Below are positions 1,398-53,367 of a stretch of DNA of 64,000 nt, piece after piece. The notes beneath the pieces are model-generated. The model did no database searches. It was not told where the DNA came from and saw nothing but the letters and a program-made list of their open reading frames with translations. Source of the DNA: an uncultured Cytophagales bacterium (GTDB lineage Bacteria > Bacteroidota > Bacteroidia > Cytophagales > Bernardetiaceae); NCBI GenBank assembly GCA_963761725.1, contig CAVXHP010000006.1, forward strand, positions 637,534 to 701,533, given 5' to 3'. A program made the position numbers and the translations under genes. Numbering within the stretch: the first letter of the stretch is position 1; each line of letters starts with the position of its first letter.

Positions 1398-3185
1398 TTA
1401 CCCAACTTTCAAACTCTTCAATAGAAAGTGTTTTAAGCGTTTTTGATTCTTCAAAAGTCCTCCTTTCTGAGCTATTTTTACGCCCCATTGTGTATCTTTC
1501 AAGCCTTCGATAGTGTGTGCATCAGGACTGATACAGAGCCAAACATTTTTTTGCATAGCGTAATTAATCCATTTCCAATCCAAATCCAGACGATACGGAT
1601 TTGCATTTATTTCTATGGCTACATTATATTCTGCACAGGCATCAATTATTTTTTGGTGGTCTATTGGATAGCCTTCTCTTCTCAAAAGTAGCCTTCCTGT
1701 TGGGTGTCCTAGTATTTTTGTGTATGGATTTTGAATAGCTTTGAGTAGTCTTTCCGTTGCTTTTTCCTCACTCATTCCCAAAACAGAATGCACAGAAGCA
1801 ATAACGACTTCAAAACCTTTTAATACATTCTCATTATAATCCAAACTTCCATCATTCAAAATATCGGATTCTATTCCTTTAAAGATACGAAAGGGAGCTA
1901 ATTTTTTATTAAGTTCTTCTATTTCTCTCCATTGCTGTTCTACTCGTTCTTTATTTAGTCCATTTGCATAAAAAGCAGATTGAGAATGGTCAGAAATTAC
2001 CAAATAAGAATGACCTAACTTTTGTGCAGCTAAAGCCATTTGCTCAATAGTATTCTGACCGTCGCTATACTTGGAATGGTTATGAATTGTTCCCTTTAAA
2101 TCTTCCAATTGCAAAAGGTCATTTTGATTATTTTCTTTTGCCCATTTCCATTCTTGTAAATCATTCTAAACCATTTCTCTGAAAAGCAGGAATAAAATTC
2201 GAACCTACTTTTTGATAAATTTCTTCTTCTGAATTTGCTTTTTGATAAGAAGCCGAAAGCAAGGAAGTTTCTAAATGATTCGGATTATTTGAGGAATAAT
2301 TAAGATGAGAAATGGAAGCCGATTCTCTCAAAAGTTTGCCATAAAAATTATATTTGTCGGTAAAATGAATTTGGATATTCAAATCAATTTCATCAAAATT
2401 TCCTTTCCATAAAAAAGGCGAATTTTCTTTTTTGTTTTTACTCTCACTTATTCCGTCCAAATTATTCAAAAACTCAACTACTTCTTTACTTGATTTATTT
2501 TCATGTAAAACAATTACAAAAGAAAGCGTATCAATAATCGGTTCGTGCCTTGCTACTTGTCCTGCAAGGCTTATTTTTTCTATTAGTTCTTTCTTATCTA
2601 TTTTTGGAAACTTTCTAAACTTTTGAGAATATAATCAGAATACTGAAAAGCAATATTGATACGCTGTTTTCCTTCCTGTTTTCCTAAAAATTCTATTTGA
2701 CTAGCTATATTTTCGGCTGTCTTTTTGCCGAACCCTTTTGTTTTTTCTAAAGAACCATCTTGGGTAGCTTCGTACAAATCCTGAACTGTTTCAATGTCTA
2801 GTTCTGTCCAAATAACACGAATTTTTTTTGCTCCCAAACCTTTAATATTCAACATTTCAAAAACTCCTACTGGCGTTTGTTCTGTAAGTTCGTTCAATTC
2901 TTTAAAACTTCCATTTTCTAAAAGTGAAGCTATTTTATCACTCATATTCTGACTAAAACCTAAAGCGATAAGTTCTTTTTGAGATAATTTTGCAGCTTCT
3001 TCGTTTAGATTTTCTAATCGTGTAGCTGTTCCAGTATAAGAACGTACTTTGAAAGGGTTTTCATTGTGAAGTTCTAGTAAAGAACCTGTTAGTTTGAAGG
3101 CTTGAGCAAGCTGTTTGTTAGTCATCTTTTGAAGTAGAAAGGGATAGAAAAGAGGTAGATTTATTTCTCTGGCAAAGATAAGCAA
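1398..3185 (-). pseudogene. polX: DNA polymerase X family (Pol beta-like N-terminal 8kDa/HhH domain + C-terminal PHP phosphoesterase), broken into at least 3 ORFs (2598-3185, 2161-2469, 1398-2114)
   Basis: N-terminal fragment has the PolX lyase/HhH signature (NPFKVRSY, GLGAKKI, GFGKKTAENI). C-terminal fragment has the PHP motif HNHSKYSDG...ISDHS. The three pieces total ~535 aa over ~1.79 kb, the size of an intact PolX. Frame changes and an uncovered 128-nt gap (2470-2597) separate the fragments. Confidence 0.65.
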
Positions 3186-6820: not shown

Positions 6821-6925
6821 AGTTATCAGTTATTAGTTATTAGTTATTAGTTATTAGTTATTAGTTATTAGTTATTAGTTATCAGTTATTAGTTATTAGT
6901 TATCAGTTATTAGTTATTAGTTATA
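6821..6925. repeat. Heptamer tandem repeat (AGTTATY) x15, starting right after the stop of 5979..6818
   Basis: Direct reading: agttatc/agttatt units with no interruption over 105 nt. Confidence 0.9.
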
Positions 6926-6983: not shown

Positions 6984-7043
6984 AATTCGTAATTCGTAAT
7001 TCGTAATTCGTAATTCGTAATTCGTAATTCGTAATTCGTAATT
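6984..7043. repeat. Heptamer tandem repeat (AATTCGT) x8, between convergent gene ends
   Basis: aattcgt repeated 8 times then a partial unit. The same heptamer recurs at 47771-47795 and degenerate copies occur at 49041 and 54455-54532. Confidence 0.9.
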
Positions 7044-14838: not shown

Positions 14839-14964
14839 GAATTGAAATTTGTTTGAGCGTTGAGGCTTGAACTAATCAATAGATTTTTATATAGGAAAGC
14901 CGAAATTCAATAGTTTTGAATTTCGGTTTTTTGTGTAATATATTTTAATTTAGTTCTTTTATTT

Positions 14965-15244
14965 CAATATGAGTGTCATTAATTCAATTTAAAATAGCTC
15001 TTCATTAGCTATAGAGTAGCATAACCTTTAGCTTCGGTGACTCGCTGCTCTTCGGGTGTAGAAAGGAATAGAAAATTAATTTTAAAAGCTACAGAGTAGC
15101 GTAACCTTGTTTTTAATTCTAATTTTCTCGCAAATCACAGAGTTTCGCTACTCTGTAGCTCTAATAAAGCTGTTCATAATGTTCTACCAAGGTTACGTTG
15201 CTCTGCAACTGAAAACCAAATACTTAAAAATGACACTCATATTG
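14965..15244. mobile_element. MITE-like element copy 1 (280 bp): 16-bp perfect TIRs CAATATGAGTGTCATT/AATGACACTCATATTG, TSD TTATTT
   Basis: Perfect TIRs. Flanking 6-bp direct duplication (14959-14964 and 15245-15250). Internal complementary modules AGCTACAGAGTAGCGTAACC / CGCTACTCTGTAGCT. Near-identical to copy 3. Confidence 0.8.
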
Positions 15245-15265
15245 TTATTTATAAACTCTTTTTTT

Positions 15266-16387
15266 ATGAAAAATCCTTCTGAAAACAAAGAAATAATTCC
15301 TATTATTGATGAGAATAAAAAGAAATTATCTAAGCTAGAAAATCTTTTTAATAATCGCATCAAACATATAAAAGATTTAAAAGAAACTATAAACTTGGCT
15401 CGTCAGCAAATTCAATGGTATCATCAAGAGTCGGTTGCCAAAATTTTTCCTATCAAAACAGAAATAGTAACCAAAGAAGTAGTATTAATAAAACTATTAG
15501 TAAAAGCCTTTGATGAAAATGTATTAAAAGAAAAAAAACAAATCAGAGATTTCAAAAAACTTTTGATTTTCTTTATTGAAGACTTGATTTTTGAAAAACA
15601 GCAAAAAGATTTAGACAAACTCTATGAGCGTTTTGCAGGAAAAACTATCGAAAAAATTAAGGAAGAAACTGAGCAAGAAGAAAGGCAAAAACTCATTCAG
15701 ATAATAGATACATTAGGACTCAAACTTACCGAAGAGGAAAGAGAAAAATTGCTATTAAAAGATTCAAATCTAGATTTTATAAATGAAATAAAAGCAAGGT
15801 TATATGAAGATAAAAGAGGAAAACCACACAAAAAAAGTAAGAAGAAACTAAGAAAAGAAGAGAAACAAAATCAAGAATTAGAAAACATCAGTGCAATAGT
15901 AAAACAGGTTTATAAAGAATTAATGAAAGCATTGCACCCTGACAAAGAACTGAACGAATCTAAGATAGTAGAAAAAACTACACTTGTTCAGCAAATTACG
16001 GAAGCCTATCGCAATGACGATTTATTTACCTTATTATCCATAAAATTTATTTGGCTTGATAATGCTGATACTACAAGTCTTGGTGATGATAAAATAGAAT
16101 ATTTTAATAAAATGCTTCTCAAACAAGTTCAGGAATTAGAAGAACAAAAGCGACAAATAGGCTTTAGTTTGAAAATACATCCTGTATTAATCAATTTTTT
16201 GGGTAAAGCAGAATTTGATAAGTTTTCAAAACGAATTATTGAACAAACTCAAAAGGAGGTTGAGAAAAAATTGCAAGATATAAATAGTCAGATAGAAAGA
16301 ATAGAAATTAAGGATAAAAAACACATAAAGAGATTTGTAAATGAGCAGTACAAACTTCTTATTGAAGATAAAACTGAAAATTATTAG
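15266..16387 (+). CDS. Hypothetical coiled-coil protein with a J-domain-like HPD segment (KELMKALHPDKELNE...ITEAYRNDD)
   Basis: The ORF-track start at 15107 lies inside the MITE; the first ATG outside it is 15266. Lys/Glu-rich predicted coiled coil. The HPD tripeptide sits in a DnaJ-like context. Confidence 0.45.
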   Translation: MKNPSENKEIIPIIDENKKKLSKLENLFNNRIKHIKDLKETINLARQQIQWYHQESVAKIFPIKTEIVTKEVVLIKLLVKAFDENVLKEKKQIRDFKKLLIFFIEDLIFEKQQKDLDKLYERFAGKTIEKIKEETEQEERQKLIQIIDTLGLKLTEEEREKLLLKDSNLDFINEIKARLYEDKRGKPHKKSKKKLRKEEKQNQELENISAIVKQVYKELMKALHPDKELNESKIVEKTTLVQQITEAYRNDDLFTLLSIKFIWLDNADTTSLGDDKIEYFNKMLLKQVQELEEQKRQIGFSLKIHPVLINFLGKAEFDKFSKRIIEQTQKEVEKKLQDINSQIERIEIKDKKHIKRFVNEQYKLLIEDKTENY

Positions 16388-16479: not shown

Positions 16480-16543
16480 AGCTGACACTTTCCAAGTGTC
16501 AGAATGTGATATGTATTTTATTGACACTTGGAAAGTGTCGGCT
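16480..16543. promoter_or_regulatory. Inverted repeat with internally palindromic 23-bp arms (AGCTGACACTTTCCAAGTGTCAG ... TTGACACTTGGAAAGTGTCGGCT) immediately upstream of the next gene
   Basis: Each arm is a 9-bp stem hairpin with a 3-nt loop (TCC vs GGA). Arms are reverse complements separated by an 18-nt AT-rich spacer. Confidence 0.45.
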
Positions 16544-16559
16544 ACTTTTGAATTATTTT

Positions 16560-18209
16560 ATGACAAAATTGAAGATGCGTCTTTTACGCTTTCGTGTGTG
16601 GTTTCAAAATCAATGGAAAAGCCGTTCTCAAAAGGAAAAATATACGGTCGGAATGGCTGGACTTTTGGGTGTTTTGCTAATTTTTGCAGTCGCTTTTGTG
16701 ATTTGGAATACGAATAGAGAAGCCTCTGTTTGGGAACTTGTGCCTAATGATGCCATTTTGGTTTTGGAAACTACGGAAGCACAGCGAATGAGAGAAAAAA
16801 TTGATTCCCTTCCCTTTTGGCAGCCTTTCAAAAATTTGCCTTATCTTCAATCCTATCACTCACGCAAAACGGTTTTGGATTCTGTTGGTAGAGATTCTTT
16901 AGATATTATGAATTATCTAAAAGGCAGGAAAATATATGTTTCATTGCATCAAACTTCACGTACAAGTGCTGATATTATGTTTTTTGTTCCGATGTCTTTG
17001 CAATCAAGGATTATAAATAGTCTATCCAAAAAATTACAAAAAGATATTCCTTTTACACATTCAGAGCGTCTCTACAATGAAATTACGGTTCACGAGCTAA
17101 AATATGAATATGAAAAGACCGATAAAGATGGAAATATAGAAGCTAGAAAAAACTCAAATCGCAAAAACGAAACGGAAAGCGTAATTTTTACTTATGTAAT
17201 CTACAAAAACTTTTTTATAGGAAGTTATACACCTTTTTTGGTAGAAGATGCTGTTCGTAAAATAGCAAATAATGAAGAGACGCCTTTTTTTAAAGAAAAT
17301 AAAGACCTTCTCAAACTCACAAAAATAGAAGATGACGATGCAAACCTATATGTTTCGGCTTCACAAATTCCAAAACTTTTTTCCCTTTTTACGGAGGAAG
17401 AAAACACAGCTCTACTTTCTAGTTTTGGTAATTGGGCAAAATCAGCTATGCTTGATGTTTCCTTGAAGGAACATTTACTTTTATTAAATGGCTATGTTTT
17501 GACGCAAGAAGAAGGAACAGAAAGAGATTATTTGTCTATTTTAGAAACTCAAAAATTGATTGATTTTATTGATTTACAGCAATTTATCCCTCAAGAAACC
17601 GCTCTTTTGTATAGAATTGGACTTTCAGAACCCGAAAAGTATTTTAATGAATTAGAAAAATATAGAAAAGAATATTTACCAAGACAGATTGAAGCAAAGG
17701 AAACTTTGATTGATAATTATAGCTTCTCACCTACTCGTTTTTTGGATAATCTAGGAAATGAAATTGCTGTTGCTGTCTTGGAAATGCCAGAAAACCGAAA
17801 AAACCCAGAAAAATTAGCCTTCCTAAAGATAAAATCAGAAGACGGACAAACCGAAAAATACGAACAAAAAGCAGTCGCCTTATTAAAACAACTTGCCGAA
17901 AATTCATTGGTACAAGTAAAAAGTGAAGATGGTAAAGAAAATGAAACCAAACCATTGACAGAAATCTATGAAGAACTTCCAATTACACGTATTGAAGTAG
18001 CAGATTTTCCCAAAAAGATGTTTGGAGAAGGTTTTAGTGGATTTTCGCAGTCTTATTACACTGTTTTGGAAAGTAAATATATTGTGATTGGAAGTAGTTT
18101 TCAGGCTATTCAAAAATTGATTGATGATTATAAAAATGAACGTGTTTGGGGAAAACTAGTCAGGCAAAGACAGTTTTTCGAACAAATCGGAACTCGTTCG
18201 AACAGTTAG
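16560..18209 (+). CDS. Hypothetical membrane-anchored protein (single N-terminal TM, large extracytoplasmic domain)
   Basis: The ORF-track start (GTG at 16506) lies within the palindrome, so the ATG at 16560 is preferred. TM YTVGMAGLLGVLLIFAVAFVIWN. No recognisable catalytic motifs. Confidence 0.45.
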   Translation: MTKLKMRLLRFRVWFQNQWKSRSQKEKYTVGMAGLLGVLLIFAVAFVIWNTNREASVWELVPNDAILVLETTEAQRMREKIDSLPFWQPFKNLPYLQSYHSRKTVLDSVGRDSLDIMNYLKGRKIYVSLHQTSRTSADIMFFVPMSLQSRIINSLSKKLQKDIPFTHSERLYNEITVHELKYEYEKTDKDGNIEARKNSNRKNETESVIFTYVIYKNFFIGSYTPFLVEDAVRKIANNEETPFFKENKDLLKLTKIEDDDANLYVSASQIPKLFSLFTEEENTALLSSFGNWAKSAMLDVSLKEHLLLLNGYVLTQEEGTERDYLSILETQKLIDFIDLQQFIPQETALLYRIGLSEPEKYFNELEKYRKEYLPRQIEAKETLIDNYSFSPTRFLDNLGNEIAVAVLEMPENRKNPEKLAFLKIKSEDGQTEKYEQKAVALLKQLAENSLVQVKSEDGKENETKPLTEIYEELPITRIEVADFPKKMFGEGFSGFSQSYYTVLESKYIVIGSSFQAIQKLIDDYKNERVWGKLVRQRQFFEQIGTRSNS

Positions 18210-18222
18210 TGTAATTGTAGAT

Positions 18223-19503
18223 TTGCCTCGCTCTTGGAATTGGCTTATGACAAATATTTCTCCAGAATGGCAAAAGACGTTTGAAGCCTATAAATACGAT
18301 CTTTTGAAAGTAGAGTTTTTGGCGTGGCAAGCAGAAGGAGAAGAAAAGCGTTTTGCTAGTTCGATTATTTTCCAACAACAAAAAACAGCTGAATTAGTAG
18401 CTCAAAGCAAGAAAGAAGAAGCCAAAACGATTTTTAAAAGTAGATTAGAAAGTCCTCCCTATTTGGTTAGAAATCATTTGGATAGAAGTCAGGAAGTGTT
18501 GGTTCAAGATGAAAAAGATATGTTGTATTTGGTTTCGAAGGAAGGAAAAATACTTTGGAATTATTATCTAAATGGAACAATGCGACCACAAGTTTATCAA
18601 ATTGATGCTTATAAAAATGGAAAATTGCAGTATTTGATTGCTACGCCTACAAAGGTTTATTTGATTGACCGTTTGGGAAGAGCAGTTTCTGGTTTTCCGA
18701 TTTGGTTTCCAGAAAACACATTTATTACGCATCTTTCAGTCATTGATTATGACAATTCAAAGAATTATAGAATTAGTGTAGCTACTAGTCAGGGCAATGT
18801 TTATTTATACGACAAAACGGGTCAGAGTTTACCAGGCTGGCAACCTCGTAAGGTTGGCATGGCTCTTTCTGCTCCTTTAGAACACGTTCGGGCAGGAAAT
18901 AGAGATGCCATGATTGCGATTGAACAAAACGGAATTGTCAATTTACTAAAACGAAATTCTCAAAGTTATTCCAATTTTCCACTCAATTTTAGTTCGGATA
19001 TTACCAATGATTTTCATGTAGATTATGGCAACACACTTTCCACAACAGAAGTAAGTATGCTGACCGAAGCTGGCGAACTAATTCGTTTTAATTTGGAGGG
19101 AAAAATAGTAGATAGAAAATTCTTTGAGAGAGGAGAACAAGGTGCAATTTTTACGCTTGCAGCCGACAAACAGCGTGAACAAAATTTTGTAATTGCACGA
19201 CAAGACAGCAAAAAACTAACGCTTTATTCGTCGGAAGAAGAACTCTTGTTTTCTAAAAATTATGACAATGAAGGAACAAAACTAATTCAATATTTCAATT
19301 TTGGAGCAAGTATAGAAGTCATTGCTGTTACAGATATGCACGCACAAAAAACCTATCTCTATTACACTAACGGAACAATGATAGGAGGAAAACCAATACA
19401 AAGTAACACAACGATTGCACTTTTTTATTCGGAACAAACGAGCCTTTTTACGCTTTACAGAACACTTGACAATGAATGTCAGAAACTGGTTTTTGGGAGG
19501 TAA
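18223..19503 (+). CDS. Hypothetical protein with beta-propeller-like (PQQ/WD-like) repeats; possibly the continuation of the preceding gene via a frameshift
   Basis: Track start is TTG, 13 nt after the stop of the previous ORF in another frame (alternative ATG at 18247). Recurrent beta-strand repeats (LYLVSKEGKILWNY, VYLIDRLGRAVSGFP, GNVYLYDKTGQSLPGW). Confidence 0.4.
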   Translation: MPRSWNWLMTNISPEWQKTFEAYKYDLLKVEFLAWQAEGEEKRFASSIIFQQQKTAELVAQSKKEEAKTIFKSRLESPPYLVRNHLDRSQEVLVQDEKDMLYLVSKEGKILWNYYLNGTMRPQVYQIDAYKNGKLQYLIATPTKVYLIDRLGRAVSGFPIWFPENTFITHLSVIDYDNSKNYRISVATSQGNVYLYDKTGQSLPGWQPRKVGMALSAPLEHVRAGNRDAMIAIEQNGIVNLLKRNSQSYSNFPLNFSSDITNDFHVDYGNTLSTTEVSMLTEAGELIRFNLEGKIVDRKFFERGEQGAIFTLAADKQREQNFVIARQDSKKLTLYSSEEELLFSKNYDNEGTKLIQYFNFGASIEVIAVTDMHAQKTYLYYTNGTMIGGKPIQSNTTIALFYSEQTSLFTLYRTLDNECQKLVFGR

Positions 19504-24437: not shown

Positions 24438-25403
24438 TTAAATCTTAATCACTTTTACGGTAAATAAAACATCAATAATTGCTAAAAATAAAGTTGCATA
24501 TAAGAAGTAATAATATTTATTTGTCGTTGTGTCTATTTGTTTTACACCTCTTACTTCTCCTTGAATAGATTGAATGGCATTTATGAGTCGCTGAACATCA
24601 TTTTGAGTTTCTCCAATTTCGTAATATTTTCCTCCTGTTTGGCTTGCTAAATCTTGTAAGTCAGACGGATTTAGTTTTGTAATAATCGTTTCTCCATTTC
24701 TATCGTCTTTCTTAAAACCACTACCAGATGGTATTTTTCCACCTTGTTCTGTCCCGATTCCTAATGCAAAGAGTTTGATTCCCAAATCTTCAATTTCATC
24801 TATTGCATCGCCTGTTTCTTCTCCAAAATCTTCTCCATCACTTATCATAATAATGATTTTCGAATTCGTTTTGGTATCTTTATCACTTTCAAATTTTTCT
24901 AAAGCCATTTGTAAAGGAGGTGCAAAATCAGTTCCTCCACTGGGTACAAGTCCAGTATTCAGAGATTCTAATATTAATCGCAATGCACTTTGGTCACTTG
25001 TAAGAGGACATTGAAGAAATGCTTCCGATGAAAAAATGATAATTCCTTGCCTGTCAGAAGAAAAAGCTGTCGTAATTGCTTTAAGTTCGTGCTTGATACG
25101 CTCCATTCTGGAAGGCTGAATATCTATTGCATCCATTGAGCGAGATAAATCTACCAAATAAAAAATATCTTTTCCTATACTTTTTACTTCTTGCTTCGTT
25201 TCTCCAAAAGAAGGACCAAGAAGAGCCAAAATGAGCAAAATAAAATAGCTGCTTCGAAGCACAAATTTAAGCCAGACATATTTTGAAGAAGTGCGTAAGT
25301 ATTTTGCTTTTTTGTGTGTTCTGAAAATATACAAACCATATAAAAGTAAAAACACACAAATAAATACAGTTTCAAGAATGCCTAAGTCGTTGTTCCAAAT
25401 CAT
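24438..25403 (-). CDS. von Willebrand factor type A (vWA) domain protein, BatA-like, N-terminal TM
   Basis: vWA MIDAS motif DLSRSMDAIDIQPSRMERIK, ISDGEDFG. The track start (25445) is the ATG inside the MITE TIR; the start at 25403 (MIWNND...) is preferred. Confidence 0.7.
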   Translation of the reverse strand: MIWNNDLGILETVFICVFLLLYGLYIFRTHKKAKYLRTSSKYVWLKFVLRSSYFILLILALLGPSFGETKQEVKSIGKDIFYLVDLSRSMDAIDIQPSRMERIKHELKAITTAFSSDRQGIIIFSSEAFLQCPLTSDQSALRLILESLNTGLVPSGGTDFAPPLQMALEKFESDKDTKTNSKIIIMISDGEDFGEETGDAIDEIEDLGIKLFALGIGTEQGGKIPSGSGFKKDDRNGETIITKLNPSDLQDLASQTGGKYYEIGETQNDVQRLINAIQSIQGEVRGVKQIDTTTNKYYYFLYATLFLAIIDVLFTVKVIKI

Positions 25404-25430
25404 AGTACAATTAAAATCTATTTGAAATAT

Positions 25431-25671
25431 CAATATGAGTGTCATTTTGAGTCATTGACTTTTAGTTGCAGCCGCAACGTAACCTTGGTAGAAGCTCAAA
25501 AGCGTATTTCAATAGAGCTACAGAGTAGCGAAACTTGCAATTGGGCAATTAAGAATAAAGTTACGCTACGTTGTAGCTTTTCAAATCAATTTTATTTTTG
25601 TTCTACCAAGGTAAAGCTACTCTGTAGCTAATAAATGCCTATTTTGATTTCTGCCAATGACACTCATATTG
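25431..25671. mobile_element. MITE-like element copy 2 (241 bp, inverted orientation relative to copy 1), TSD AAATAT
   Basis: Same perfect 16-bp TIRs. Flanking direct repeat AAATAT (25425-25430 / 25672-25677). Internal AGCTACAGAGTAGCG and GGTTACG..GCAACT modules. Confidence 0.8.
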
Positions 25672-25929
25672 AAATATATCAGAATTAAAATAAAGTATTT
25701 TTAGTAAAATAATTAAGTGAAAGTAAGCAAAAACTATCGTTTATGGGAATTTTTTAGTTTAATTTATTAAAAATACTTTTCAAAATTGAAAATCCTAAAA
25801 TCTTTTTGTATCTTTTAGTTTATTTATTCTGTGTCGCTCGTAGGGATACAAGCAACGGTAGAGCAAGTTTTTGTTCTAACAAATTATCTTTTTTTAAAAT
25901 AAAACGGTTGTCTGACAATTTTTGTGGAA

Positions 25930-26001
25930 GTCGTTGGTGAGACACCAACAACGGAAAAAAAGAGTCATAAATACCTCGCCATTGTCGGTGTCTCACCGAC
26001 G
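25930..26001. repeat. REP-like palindromic pair (GTCGTTGGTGAGACACCAACAACGG and CGCCATTGTCGGTGTCTCACCGACG)
   Basis: Two hairpins with stems GTTGGTG/CACCAAC and GTCGGTG/CACCGAC. Related copies at 53301-53332 and in the element at 40735-40918. Confidence 0.55.
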
Positions 26002-40688: not shown

Positions 40689-40734
40689 GAACTTGATGTA
40701 AAATTTTGAAAACTAAAAACTCCTTATTTCCCGA

Positions 40735-40918
40735 GCCGTTGTTGGTCTTTAACTTCGGCTTGCCGTTGTGATTACCAACAACAGACATACACGAACAATT
40801 TATGAACTCACCACCAAAACTAAAAAGTTAAATGCGAAAAAAGTGTTTATCTTAGCTTACACATGTTTGAGTTGTTGGTCATCGTAACGGCAAGCCGAAA
40901 CTAAAGACCAACAACGGC
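40735..40918. repeat. ~184-bp element bounded by ~47-bp imperfect inverted repeats (GCCGTTGTTGGTCTTTAACTTCGGCTTGCCGTTGTGATTACCAACAAC ... GTTGTTGGTCATCGTAACGGCAAGCCGAAACTAAAGACCAACAACGGC)
   Basis: Long arms are reverse complements with a few mismatches. Shares the CCGTTGTTGGT/ACCAACAACGG core with the hairpins at 25930 and 53301. Confidence 0.6.
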
Positions 40919-47770: not shown

Positions 47771-47795
47771 AATTCGTAATTCGTAATTCGTAATT
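47771..47795. repeat. Heptamer tandem repeat (AATTCGT) x3 abutting the stop of the GNAT gene
   Basis: Same heptamer as 6984-7043. Confidence 0.85.
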
Positions 47796-48280: not shown

Positions 48281-48408
48281 AATAAATTGAGAAAAAATAA
48301 GTAAAAAAGATACTTTTTAAAATTAGGTTCTGTAATTTTGCAGCCACAAAAATAATTTATTTAATTTACAAAGGACAACGTTTTACTAAAAAATATCTTC
48401 AAATCATT

Positions 48409-48688
48409 CAATATGAGTGTCATTAATTCAATTCAAAATAGCTCTTCATTAGCTACAGAGTAGCATAACCTTTAGCTTCGGTGACTCGCTGCTCTTCGGG
48501 TGTAGAAAGGAATAAAAAATTAATTTTAAAAGCTACAGAGTAGCGTAACCTTGTTTTTAATTTTAATTTTCTCGCAAATCACAGAGTTTCGCTACTCTGT
48601 AGCTCTAATAAAGCTGTTTGTAACGTTCTACCAAGGTTACGTTGCTCTGCAACTGAAAATCAAATACTTAAAAATGACACTCATATTG
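48409..48688. mobile_element. MITE-like element copy 3 (280 bp), TSD AATCATT
   Basis: Perfect TIRs. 7-bp flanking duplication (48402-48408 / 48689-48695). Differs from copy 1 by a few SNPs. Confidence 0.8.
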
Positions 48689-48747
48689 AATCATTAATGA
48701 CTTAATTAAAAGATTTAATAGACAAGTTATATTTTAAGTTAATTTTA

Positions 48748-48999
48748 CAATATGAGTGTCATTGGCGAAAATCGAAACAAGTATTTGTTAGCTACAGAGT
48801 AGCGTAACCTTTGTAGAAAAAGAATAAGAATTGATTTGAAAAGCTACAGCGTAGCGTAACCTTATTTTTAATTCTAATTTCATGAAAGTTGCAAGGTTTC
48901 GCTACGCTGTAGCTCTAATGAAGGTTATTATTTACTGTTCTACCAAGGTTACGTTGCGATGCAACTAAAACTCAATACTTAGAAATGACACTCATATTG
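48748..48999. mobile_element. MITE-like element copy 4 (252 bp), TSD ATTTTA, 59 bp downstream of copy 3
   Basis: Perfect TIRs. Flanking ATTTTA (48742-48747 / 49000-49005). Internal hairpin carries a compensatory pair change (CAGCGTAGCG/CGCTACGCTG vs CAGAGTAGCG/CGCTACTCTG in copy 1). Confidence 0.8.
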
Positions 49000-49086
49000 A
49001 TTTTAATTCGTAGTTTTTAATTGACTTCGTCGCTTTGACAGGTCGTAATTCGTAATTATTTAATTCATTCATAAATTCATAAAATT

Positions 49087-49554
49087 ATGATTCAACGTAT
49101 TCAAAGTATTTTTTTATTAATGGTTTCTATTTTTATGGGACTTACTGTTTTTCTTCCTATCTGGGGAAAATCAGACGGAACAAATAAAATTGAGATGAAC
49201 TCTATCGAAATGGTACAGACTTTAGCAGGTGATGTAGTAATGGAGCAAACAACCGTTTATCTTGCCATTATTGCAGCTCTAACGGCTATTCTTTCTTTTG
49301 GAAATATTTTTAATTATAAAAATCGTCGTTTTCAAATGAAAATTTCACTTTTTTGTACTCTTCTTATCGCTATTTTTATTGGAGCCTCTACTCTCCTAAC
49401 ATTCTATGCACAAGACAATTTTTCTCCTCAAGTAGGCGGAGTATTTGGTACGGGTTATTTTCTGCCTGTAGCAGCAGTTTTATTTAATTGGCTTTCTATT
49501 CGTTTTATTAAAAAGGACGAAGATATGGTTCGTAGTGCAGACCGTTTGAGATAG
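49087..49554 (+). CDS. DUF4293-like small membrane protein
   Basis: N-terminus MIQRIQSIFLLM and four predicted TM helices are typical of the Bacteroidota DUF4293 family. Confidence 0.55.
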   Translation: MIQRIQSIFLLMVSIFMGLTVFLPIWGKSDGTNKIEMNSIEMVQTLAGDVVMEQTTVYLAIIAALTAILSFGNIFNYKNRRFQMKISLFCTLLIAIFIGASTLLTFYAQDNFSPQVGGVFGTGYFLPVAAVLFNWLSIRFIKKDEDMVRSADRLR

Positions 49555-52473: not shown

Positions 52474-53367
52474 CTAACTGATAACTGATAACTGAAAAGC
52501 CATTTCTTGCTGAATTTGCTGTGCTGCTTTGGCTGCCATTTCTGCAAAATCTCTGTCTTTGCTGGCATAGATAATCTGACGAGAAGAGTTTATCAGAAGT
52601 CCACATTCTTTTGTAAGTCCTGCTTTTGATACTTCTGCTAAATTTCCTCCTTGAGCTCCAACTCCTGGAACCAACAAAAAATGATTGGGTATTATTTTGC
52701 GAATATTCTCTATGTATTCTGCCTTTGTTGCACCCACAACATACATTAGATTTTCTTCTGTCCCCCATTCTTTACTTTTTTCTAAAACTTCTTCATATAC
52801 TTTTTTTCCATTTTTGAGTTCTAACATTTCAAAATCTTCTGCACCCGAATTTGAAGTAAGAGCTAACAGAATTGTCCATTTATTTTTTATTTCTAAAAAA
52901 GGTTTTACAGAGTCTTCTCCCATATAAGGTGCAACTGTAATGGCATCACAATTCAAGTTTTCAAGAAATGCTTTTGCATATTGAGTAGAAGTATTTCCAA
53001 TATCACCTCGTTTTGCATCAGCAATAATAAAGACATTGTGAGGTAAGTATTCAATTGTTTTTTGCAGACTTTCCCACCCTTTTGTTCCTAGAGCTTCGTA
53101 AAAAGCAGTGTTTAGTTTGTAAGAAACAGCATATTTTTCTGTCGCATCAATAATGCGTTTATTAAACTCAAAAATAGGGTCTTTTGCATTTAATAAATGA
53201 AACGGAATTTTTTTAATATCACTATCCAAACCTACACAAAGGTAAGATTCTTTAGCTTTTATTTGAGAGATGAGTTTAGTGCGATTCACTTTTAATATAT
53301 GTTGTGTCGTTGGTGGAGACACCAACAACGGCGAAGAGAAATGAGTTTTGAAACCAATTTTATACAA
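52474..53367 (-). CDS. pyrF: Orotidine 5'-phosphate decarboxylase (type 2)
   Basis: [35 protein letters not shown] motifs. The N-terminal ~25 codons of the track ORF are encoded by a REP-like hairpin, so the true start is probably further 3'. The C-terminal codons overlap the heptamer repeat. Confidence 0.85.
53301..53332. repeat. REP-like hairpin GTTGTGTCGTTGGTGGAGACACCAACAACGGC
   Basis: Near-identical to 25930-25954, and shares the CCGTTGTTGGT/ACCAACAACGG core with the 40735-40918 element. Confidence 0.55.

Follow-up and report, generated by a model that had tools for sequence, protein, structure and literature searches.

A MITE-like element family with a four-hairpin interior in a Bernardetia-like bacterium, and its candidate parent insertion sequence

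Prokaryotic type II MITEs such as MITEAba12 are small, non-coding, AT-rich and intergenic elements that are flanked by target-site duplications (TSDs), occur as diverged copies, fold into a rod and are related to an insertion sequence (IS) through their terminal inverted repeats (TIRs) only, these being identical to the repeats of a co-resident IS (PMC10969869). Among insertion sequences, the YREK motif and 5'-CA ends define the IS4 family proper, and in IS701 elements the TSD measures 4 bp and YREK is mostly missing (De Palmenaer et al. 2008, PMC2266710). The Emigrant MITE of Arabidopsis has, in addition to its TIRs, conserved repeated motifs in subterminal position, to which the transposase of its partner Lemi1 binds cooperatively (PMC1636448). 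MITEs that lie just upstream of genes and are co-transcribed with them are known from Neisseria (Correia) and from Porphyromonas gingivalis (BrickBuilt; PMC4596501), and BrickBuilt is in addition a modular MITE of the Bacteroidota.

The elements described here lie in a 64-kb window (the whole stretch of DNA that was analysed, 64,000 nucleotides) from a Bernardetia-like member of the Cytophagales, whose closest named relatives are Bernardetia species, its DUF4293 protein being 81% identical to that of Bernardetia sp. OM2101. Four copies of 241-280 bp, c1 to c4, share all the traits of type II MITEs listed above, and differ from them in a TIR sequence, a parent IS and a Bernardetiaceae host that do not appear in the literature searched, as well as in an interior composed of four hairpin-plus-tail modules conserved as strongly as the TIRs. 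The resemblance to Emigrant is confined to the conserved motifs, since Emigrant is a eukaryotic, pogo/Tc1-like element with a TA target, whereas here the parent IS lacks the modules and their binding is putative only. None of the features proper to Correia (26-bp TIRs, a TA duplication, proven promoters, an IHF site and RNase III cleavage) is present, with no promoter evident, and the IS5-type TIRs (GAGACC...) and tandem 23-nt repeats of BrickBuilt are likewise absent. It is considered very probable that c1 to c4 are non-coding MITEs that depend for their movement on the DDE transposase of an IS4-superfamily IS of about 1.46 kb, supplied in trans. As a kind of element they are ordinary, although their four-hairpin interior is unusually well conserved; they leave the current understanding of transposons unchanged and add a previously undescribed MITE family, paired with a likely parent IS, in the little-studied Bernardetiaceae.

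Window copies and their four-module interior

Each copy is bounded by an inward-facing pair of TIRs, CAATATGAGTGTCATT / AATGACACTCATATTG, perfect at 16 of 16 positions in all four, and these pairs account for eight exact 16-mers in the window, starting at 14965, 15229, 25431, 25656, 48409, 48673, 48748 and 48984. With up to three mismatches allowed, nine matches are found against 1.09 expected, a number reached in none of 100 shuffles. The four pairs had been reported in a preliminary description made from the letters of the window, and all have been recovered exactly, together with the TSDs it had proposed, which differ from copy to copy (6, 6, 7 and 6 bp for c1 to c4; Table 1). A duplication of at least 6 bp occurs at random junction pairs in the window with a frequency of 0.0012, which is the chance for each element, and MITE TSDs overall measure 6-8 bp. 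The copies c1 and c3 had been called near-identical and c2 and c4 diverged, which agrees with an identity of 97.1% over 280 bp for the first pair against 77-83% for the remaining pairs. In orientation, c2 is inverted relative to the other three, its 81% identity to c4 being seen in reverse orientation only, and the plus strand of c2 has been taken as the canonical orientation.

None of the copies has coding capacity, the only open reading frames (ORFs) that touch them being extensions of neighbouring genes. The N-terminal extensions that had been called spurious were traced to ORFs 24438..25445 and 15107..16387, which start inside elements. Both the repeats and these extensions are thus explained by the elements, which should be masked in annotation.

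Table 1. Positions in the window of the four copies, their duplications and modules, and a conserved block beside c3 and c4.
Feature	Position	Strand	Remarks
c1, MITE copy, 280 bp	14965..15244	- (canonical orientation on minus)	TIRs 14965-14980 and 15229-15244
c1 TSD TTATTT, left and right halves	14959..14964, 15245..15250	.	
c1 M1	15181..15210	-	GTTGC-AGA-GCAAC hairpin and GTAACCTTGGTAGAAC
c1 M2 (AGCTACAGAGTAGCGAAAC..)	15139..15160	-	pairs with M3, ~21-bp stem
c1 M3 (AGCTACAGAGTAGCGTAACCTT)	15087..15108	+	
c1 M4 (AGCTATAGAGTAGCATAACCTT)	15007..15028	+	one G-T in stem
28-nt insert TAGCTTCGGTGACTCGCTGCTCTTCGGG	15029..15056	+	separates c1 M4 from TGTAGAA extension
c2, MITE copy, 241 bp	25431..25671	+ (canonical)	TIRs 25431-25446 and 25656-25671
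c2 TSD AAATAT, left and right halves	25425..25430, 25672..25677	.	
c2 modules	M1 25464-25493, M2 25516-25537, M3 25557-25578, M4 25600-25629		
c3, MITE copy, 280 bp	48409..48688	-	97.1% identical to c1
c3 TSD AATCATT, left and right halves	48402..48408, 48689..48695	.	
c3 modules	M4 48451-48472, M3 48531-48552, M2 48583-48604, M1 48632-48654		
c4, MITE copy, 252 bp	48748..48999	-	
c4 TSD ATTTTA, left and right halves	48742..48747, 49000..49005	.	
c4 modules	M4 48790-48811, M3 48842-48863, M2 48893-48914, M1 48944-48966		
Context block GTTCTGTAATTTTGCAGCCACAAAAATAATTTATTT, 36 bp, outside element	48327..48362	.	conserved in three species, upstream of c3/c4 relative to DUF4293

The internal complementary modules noticed at the outset have proved to be a single module of 22-30 nt that each element contains four times, twice forward (M1 and M2) and twice reverse (M3 and M4), each time with its own 5-bp hairpin. 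This hairpin, the loop of which has 3-4 nt, is followed by GTAACCTT, to which the outer modules, M1 and M4, add (G/T)GTAGAAC. Every copy has the same canonical layout (TIR, about 19 nt, M1, spacer, M2, central loop, M3, spacer, M4, about 26 nt, TIR), and the element as a whole is a long imperfect palindrome. The 28-nt insert in M4 occurs only in c1 and c3, and a related insert lies inside M1 of copies in two other contigs (L112 and L113). A likeness between the TIR core GAGTGTC and the GAGTAGC of the module, seen by eye at 5 of 7 positions, was judged indistinguishable from chance.

Across six lineages that are 73-86% identical overall, the major-allele frequency is 0.91-0.98 in the TIRs and modules against 0.56-0.76 in the spacers. 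The module stem is found in three versions (GCTAC/GTAGC, GTTGC/GCAAC and GCAAC/GTTGC), and in 25 distinct modules 98.4% of the stem cells are paired, with changes on both sides in three of the five pairs, which reflect only about three independent events. In quasi-palindromes, compensatory changes can arise through templated repair without selection. Because of this self-correction and of the small number of events, the stem changes are suggestive of selection for the hairpin and not decisive. The earlier proposal that the hairpin is maintained is supported for the four local 5-bp hairpins, and loses the compensatory A:T to C:G change of c4 that had been cited for it: this change sits in the loops of M2 and M3 and, as it is also found in a copy from a metagenome contig (L124), is an inherited subfamily marker, to be counted once.

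The predicted fold is a rod closed by the paired TIRs, in which the tails of M1 and M4 pair with each other and M2 and M3 form a stem of 21 bp; M1 and M4 also form local hairpins. Single copies fold better than shuffles on either strand (z = -7), and the fold energy is similar for the two strands (-83.5 vs -85.8 kcal/mol). The consensus RNA fold is simply the palindrome, with a negligible covariation term of -0.36 kcal/mol.

The candidate parent insertion sequence and related families

The autonomous parent envisaged in the preliminary description has a candidate in an IS of 1459-1474 bp, which has the TIRs of the MITE and encodes a DDE transposase of 452-457 aa. In one contig (L114, 2916-4374) both TIRs are identical to those of the MITE at 16 of 16 positions and the transposase has 452 aa; Bernardetia sp. 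OM2101 has two 1474-bp elements (L045 and L087) with the same repeats at one mismatch, each encoding a 457-aa protein, and further 1474-bp copies occur in L123-L125. A genome scan with the bare TIR 16-mer returned, among the matches listed, mostly chance singles, in addition to the Bernardetia IS and three other MITE families. The transposase has 1062 homologues at E <= 1e-10, and in those whose contigs were read the termini are conserved; one of 50% identity (L117) is still flanked by CAACATGAGTGACATT, the TIR having been kept.

The transposase matches Pfam DDE_5 (7e-17) and DDE_Tnp_1 (7e-8), its translation contains a complete Y-(2)-R-(3)-E-(6)-K motif, YRLRFQIEFDFRDAK, and the IS has 5'-CA ends. 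These traits, as well as the length of about 1.46 kb, are those of the IS4 family (PMC2266710), and the preference for AT-rich targets resembles that of the IS4 subgroup ISPepr1. The TSD, mostly 6 bp (range 5-9), is nonetheless shorter than the 7-13 bp of the IS4 subgroups, and the best profile matches are of IS701 type (NCBIfam IS701_3 and Pfam DDE_5). Assignment to the IS701 family was rejected, since the TSDs are 6-9 bp and not 4, YREK is complete and the match to IS701_3, the best in NCBIfam, reaches 83.9 bits, below the cut-off of 170. Annotated cyanobacterial relatives of about 35% identity are labelled 'IS4-like ISAsp3 family', and a search of the PDB by sequence with the transposase gave no match. 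On these features the parent element is likely an IS4-like insertion sequence from the same bacterial group.

The duplications of the two kinds of element agree in their modal length, the three IS copies in long contigs of the metagenome assembly ERZ25039505 having TSDs of 6, 6 and 9 bp. In the complete genome of Bernardetia sp. OM2101, one IS (L045) has a TSD of only 5 bp and the other (L087) none, and several IS copies in short-read assemblies have none either. Only the terminal 17-18 bp are shared between IS and MITE, and none of the four modules occurs in the autonomous IS, so that module conservation is not explained by descent from it. In L124, 24 bp separate an IS (1416-2889) from a four-module MITE (2914-3155, 242 bp, TSD ATTGAA), and each of them is flanked by a 6-bp TSD of its own. 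This contig and L120 come from the same assembly, ERZ25039505; L120 represents a close strain with 97.7% identity to the window, in which c1 occupies the same site and is fixed. No transposase gene was detected by tblastn in the 64-kb window, and we infer from the metagenome assembly of the 97.7% strain that the IS is present in the exact host genome.

Copies outside the window, on which the preliminary description had made its transposon reading depend, have been found in other genomes and metagenomes, the L124 MITE among them. Others are present, in part as decayed or truncated copies, in a Flexibacter sp. MAG as well as metagenome contigs (L070/L110, L108/L111, L112, L113 and L091/L109), and a metagenome scan with a composite pattern gave six loci and four distinct copies. 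A family profile run with nhmmer over the collected DNA recovered no further copies, and a plasmid collection contained no DNA match to the element. Three other MITE families, of 114, 143 and 170 bp, have the same TIRs and unrelated interiors (L037, L066, L073 and L092). They were found in a Cytophagales MAG that shares a protein cluster of at least 90% with the host, in the Flexibacter MAG and in a Bernardetiaceae MAG, with a 6-bp TSD in four of five copies; the fifth is a 143-bp copy (L032) whose partner repeat is degenerate. In one instance (L112, 6697-6950) the four-module core lies between different terminal repeats, TTAAAACCGTA(CACG)TACAATTTT, with a possible 7-bp imperfect duplication, TTCTGCC/TTCTACC, which indicates that the core can exist without these TIRs.

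The comparison extends to orthologous spacers. In two relatives in which synteny is kept (L121 and L122), 198 and 180 bp separate the GNAT and DUF4293 genes, whose spacer is 806 bp long in the window; c3, c4 and their TSDs make up 545 bp of the excess and are absent from both orthologous spacers, in which the insertion points are too diverged to be aligned to the base. A precise empty site for c1 was sought in a relative 85% identical to the window (L106), which is without c1, and was rejected because that relative also lacks the adjacent 373-aa gene. The reading of the elements as MITE-like, with TIRs and TSDs, is fully supported, and it is further backed by an IS with identical TIRs and equal TSD length, by copies elsewhere and by spacers without c3 and c4.

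That the family is new, as had been claimed, is plausible. Rfam 15 gave no match in the window, c1 giving only sub-threshold matches to eukaryotic miRNA and snoRNA families that were taken as noise, and the TIR sequence was found in no paper, the elements of the prokaryotic MITE review and of the BrickBuilt paper being different ones; the comparison covered Rfam, the literature and the plasmid collection. A preprint census has counted more than 80,000 unique Bacteroidota MITEs, and bulk catalogues may for that reason already contain the family without naming it.

In the mechanism proposed, the IS4-superfamily DDE transposase would recognise the shared 16-18 bp termini, CAATATGAGTGTCATT(T), and, acting in trans, would insert the MITE at AT-rich sites through cuts staggered by 6-9 bp, in most cases by 6, the repair of which would yield the flanking duplication. 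We infer that it is the transposase of the candidate IS that moves the MITEs. For the conserved modules, the most likely role would be one in cis, in the propagation of the element itself, whether as subterminal sites bound by the transposase or by a host factor, or as a structure that draws the two ends towards each other, and the Emigrant/Lemi1 pair provides a precedent for conserved subterminal motifs that are bound by a transposase (PMC1636448). Effects on neighbouring genes would be side effects of landing in AT-rich 5' regions. The family may serve as a test case for whether MITEs need internal motifs besides their TIRs, and for the effect on expression of a rod of about 250 nt in a Bacteroidota 5' UTR.

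Neighbouring genes and rival readings

In the window, 21-398 nt separate the copies from a start codon, with 21 nt between c1 and the start at 15266, as had been reported, 27 nt between c2 and the ATG of the vWA gene at 25403, for which 28 bp had been given, and 87 nt between c4 and the start at 49087. The statement that all copies sit in promoter regions is true for the three loci, which are too few to test, and such a placement is expected from targeting to AT-rich 6-mers. In the GNAT-DUF4293 spacer, the conserved block of Table 1 contains back-to-back -7-like boxes, TAATTTTG on the plus strand at 48333, directed towards DUF4293, and TATTTTTG on the minus strand at 48354, directed towards GNAT. 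Because both copies lie downstream of this promoter-like block, c3 and c4 are probably transcribed within the DUF4293 5' UTR, which would be lengthened by about 545 nt of rod-forming sequence, a placement drawn from the motif and its conservation.

From the outward-reading ATG of the TIR, an open frame runs on in phase into the gene downstream of c1 (15230-15268, 12 codons) and into that downstream of c2 (25403-25445, minus strand, 14 codons), and if used, this ATG could give N-terminally extended proteins at these two copies. In the parent IS the bases of this ATG overlap the transposase stop codon, and its presence in the TIR is regarded as incidental.

The preliminary description had suggested that the element may act as a mobile promoter, a 5' leader or a structured RNA. 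In its fullest form, this amounts to a cis-regulatory device that is primarily useful to the host, the modules being kept for their function in RNA and transposition serving as delivery, a reading that is considered improbable. It draws on the nearness of the window copies to start codons and on the fact that all four present the same end to the nearest downstream gene, but orientation is mixed among the Flexibacter copies, with one as in the window (L108), two opposite (L112 and L110) and one between convergent 3' ends (L113), the resulting bias of five versus two is not significant, and the neighbours are functionally unrelated (a J-like protein, vWA and GNAT/DUF4293). The probable transcription of c3 and c4 would fit a leader, yet it would start from the native DUF4293 promoter block upstream of both copies. 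No exact Bacteroidota -7 box (TAnnTTTG) is found in c1, c3 or c4 and one is found in c2; sigma-70-like sites occur at chance level (2 vs 1.9 and 4 vs 3.6 expected), and the -7 motif, only 1.5-fold enriched in the intergenic DNA of this AT-rich window, is a weak predictor. Modules as conserved as the TIRs, compensatory stem changes and folding well beyond shuffles would agree with a function in RNA, but the strands fold equally, as those of any palindrome do, the covariation term of the consensus fold is minimal, templated repair could produce the compensatory changes without selection, and no Rfam family is matched. Promoters are indeed known from Correia and BrickBuilt MITEs (PMC10969869, PMC4596501), and none is evident in the present copies. 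It is equally doubtful that the four-hairpin core M1-M4 is the real unit of selection, a portable DNA or RNA module captured by different transposon ends and placed in 5' UTRs to control its neighbours in an orientation-dependent manner. Capture is suggested by the single core found between unrelated terminal repeats (L112), and orientation-dependent control by the U run that follows the 21-bp M2:M3 stem in one direction only; this TTTT occurs in the canonical direction, which is the one not used towards genes in the window.

A REP/REPIN-like interior, made of inverted doublets spread by a RAYT-type (Y1/HUH) transposase and merely lying between IS-type repeats, is very unlikely: the modules are short palindromes containing GTAGC, the inverted doublets M2/M3 and M1/M4 form long hairpins and the core has once been found with other terminal repeats, but in the window and about 1 Mb of other DNA every module belongs to a full element, with no solitary module and no free doublet, and the TSDs and perfect TIRs present here are lacking in REPINs. 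Practically no credence is given to the idea that the four copies are immobile, as local segmental duplications or chance inverted repeats. The separation of c3 and c4 by only 59 bp could be taken in its favour, but flanks and TSDs differ for each copy, the copies are 77-97% identical and lie in both orientations, family members occur in other genomes and metagenomes, and c3 and c4 are absent from orthologous spacers; distinct TSDs, copies elsewhere and the shorter spacers refute it. Movement in trans by the transposase of the IS4-superfamily IS is thus the preferred reading.

Other features in and around the window

The gene downstream of c1 (15266-16387) encodes a coiled-coil protein of 373 aa that has an HPD motif like that of J domains (YKELMKALHPDK) and is without a Pfam match; it is present in L120 and absent from L106, at the same place as c1. 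Close by, a single 980-aa gene of L106 corresponds to two ORFs in the window (16506-18209 and 18223-19503) and in L120, neither half of which has a Pfam match.

A second palindromic repeat family is represented by inverted arms of about 47 bp, CCGTTGTTGGTC...//...GACCAACAACGG, at 40733-40779 and 40871-40917, about 90 bp apart. Short hairpins of the form GTCGTTGGTG-loop-CACCAACAACGG occur at 25930-25954 and 53307-53332, and the MITE of L108 has a similar hairpin next to it; with at most one mismatch, CACCAACAACGG has four matches against 0.04 expected. The motif TCGCTCGTAGGGATACAAGCAACGG recurs in both orientations in the intergenic DNA of related genomes (25834-25858 in the window, about 2155-2185 in L070 and about 17110-17200 in L106). 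Intergenic tandem arrays of heptamers have also been observed, namely AGTTATT x15 (6821-6924), AATTCGT x8.6 (6984-7043) and AATTCGT x3.6 (47771-47795).
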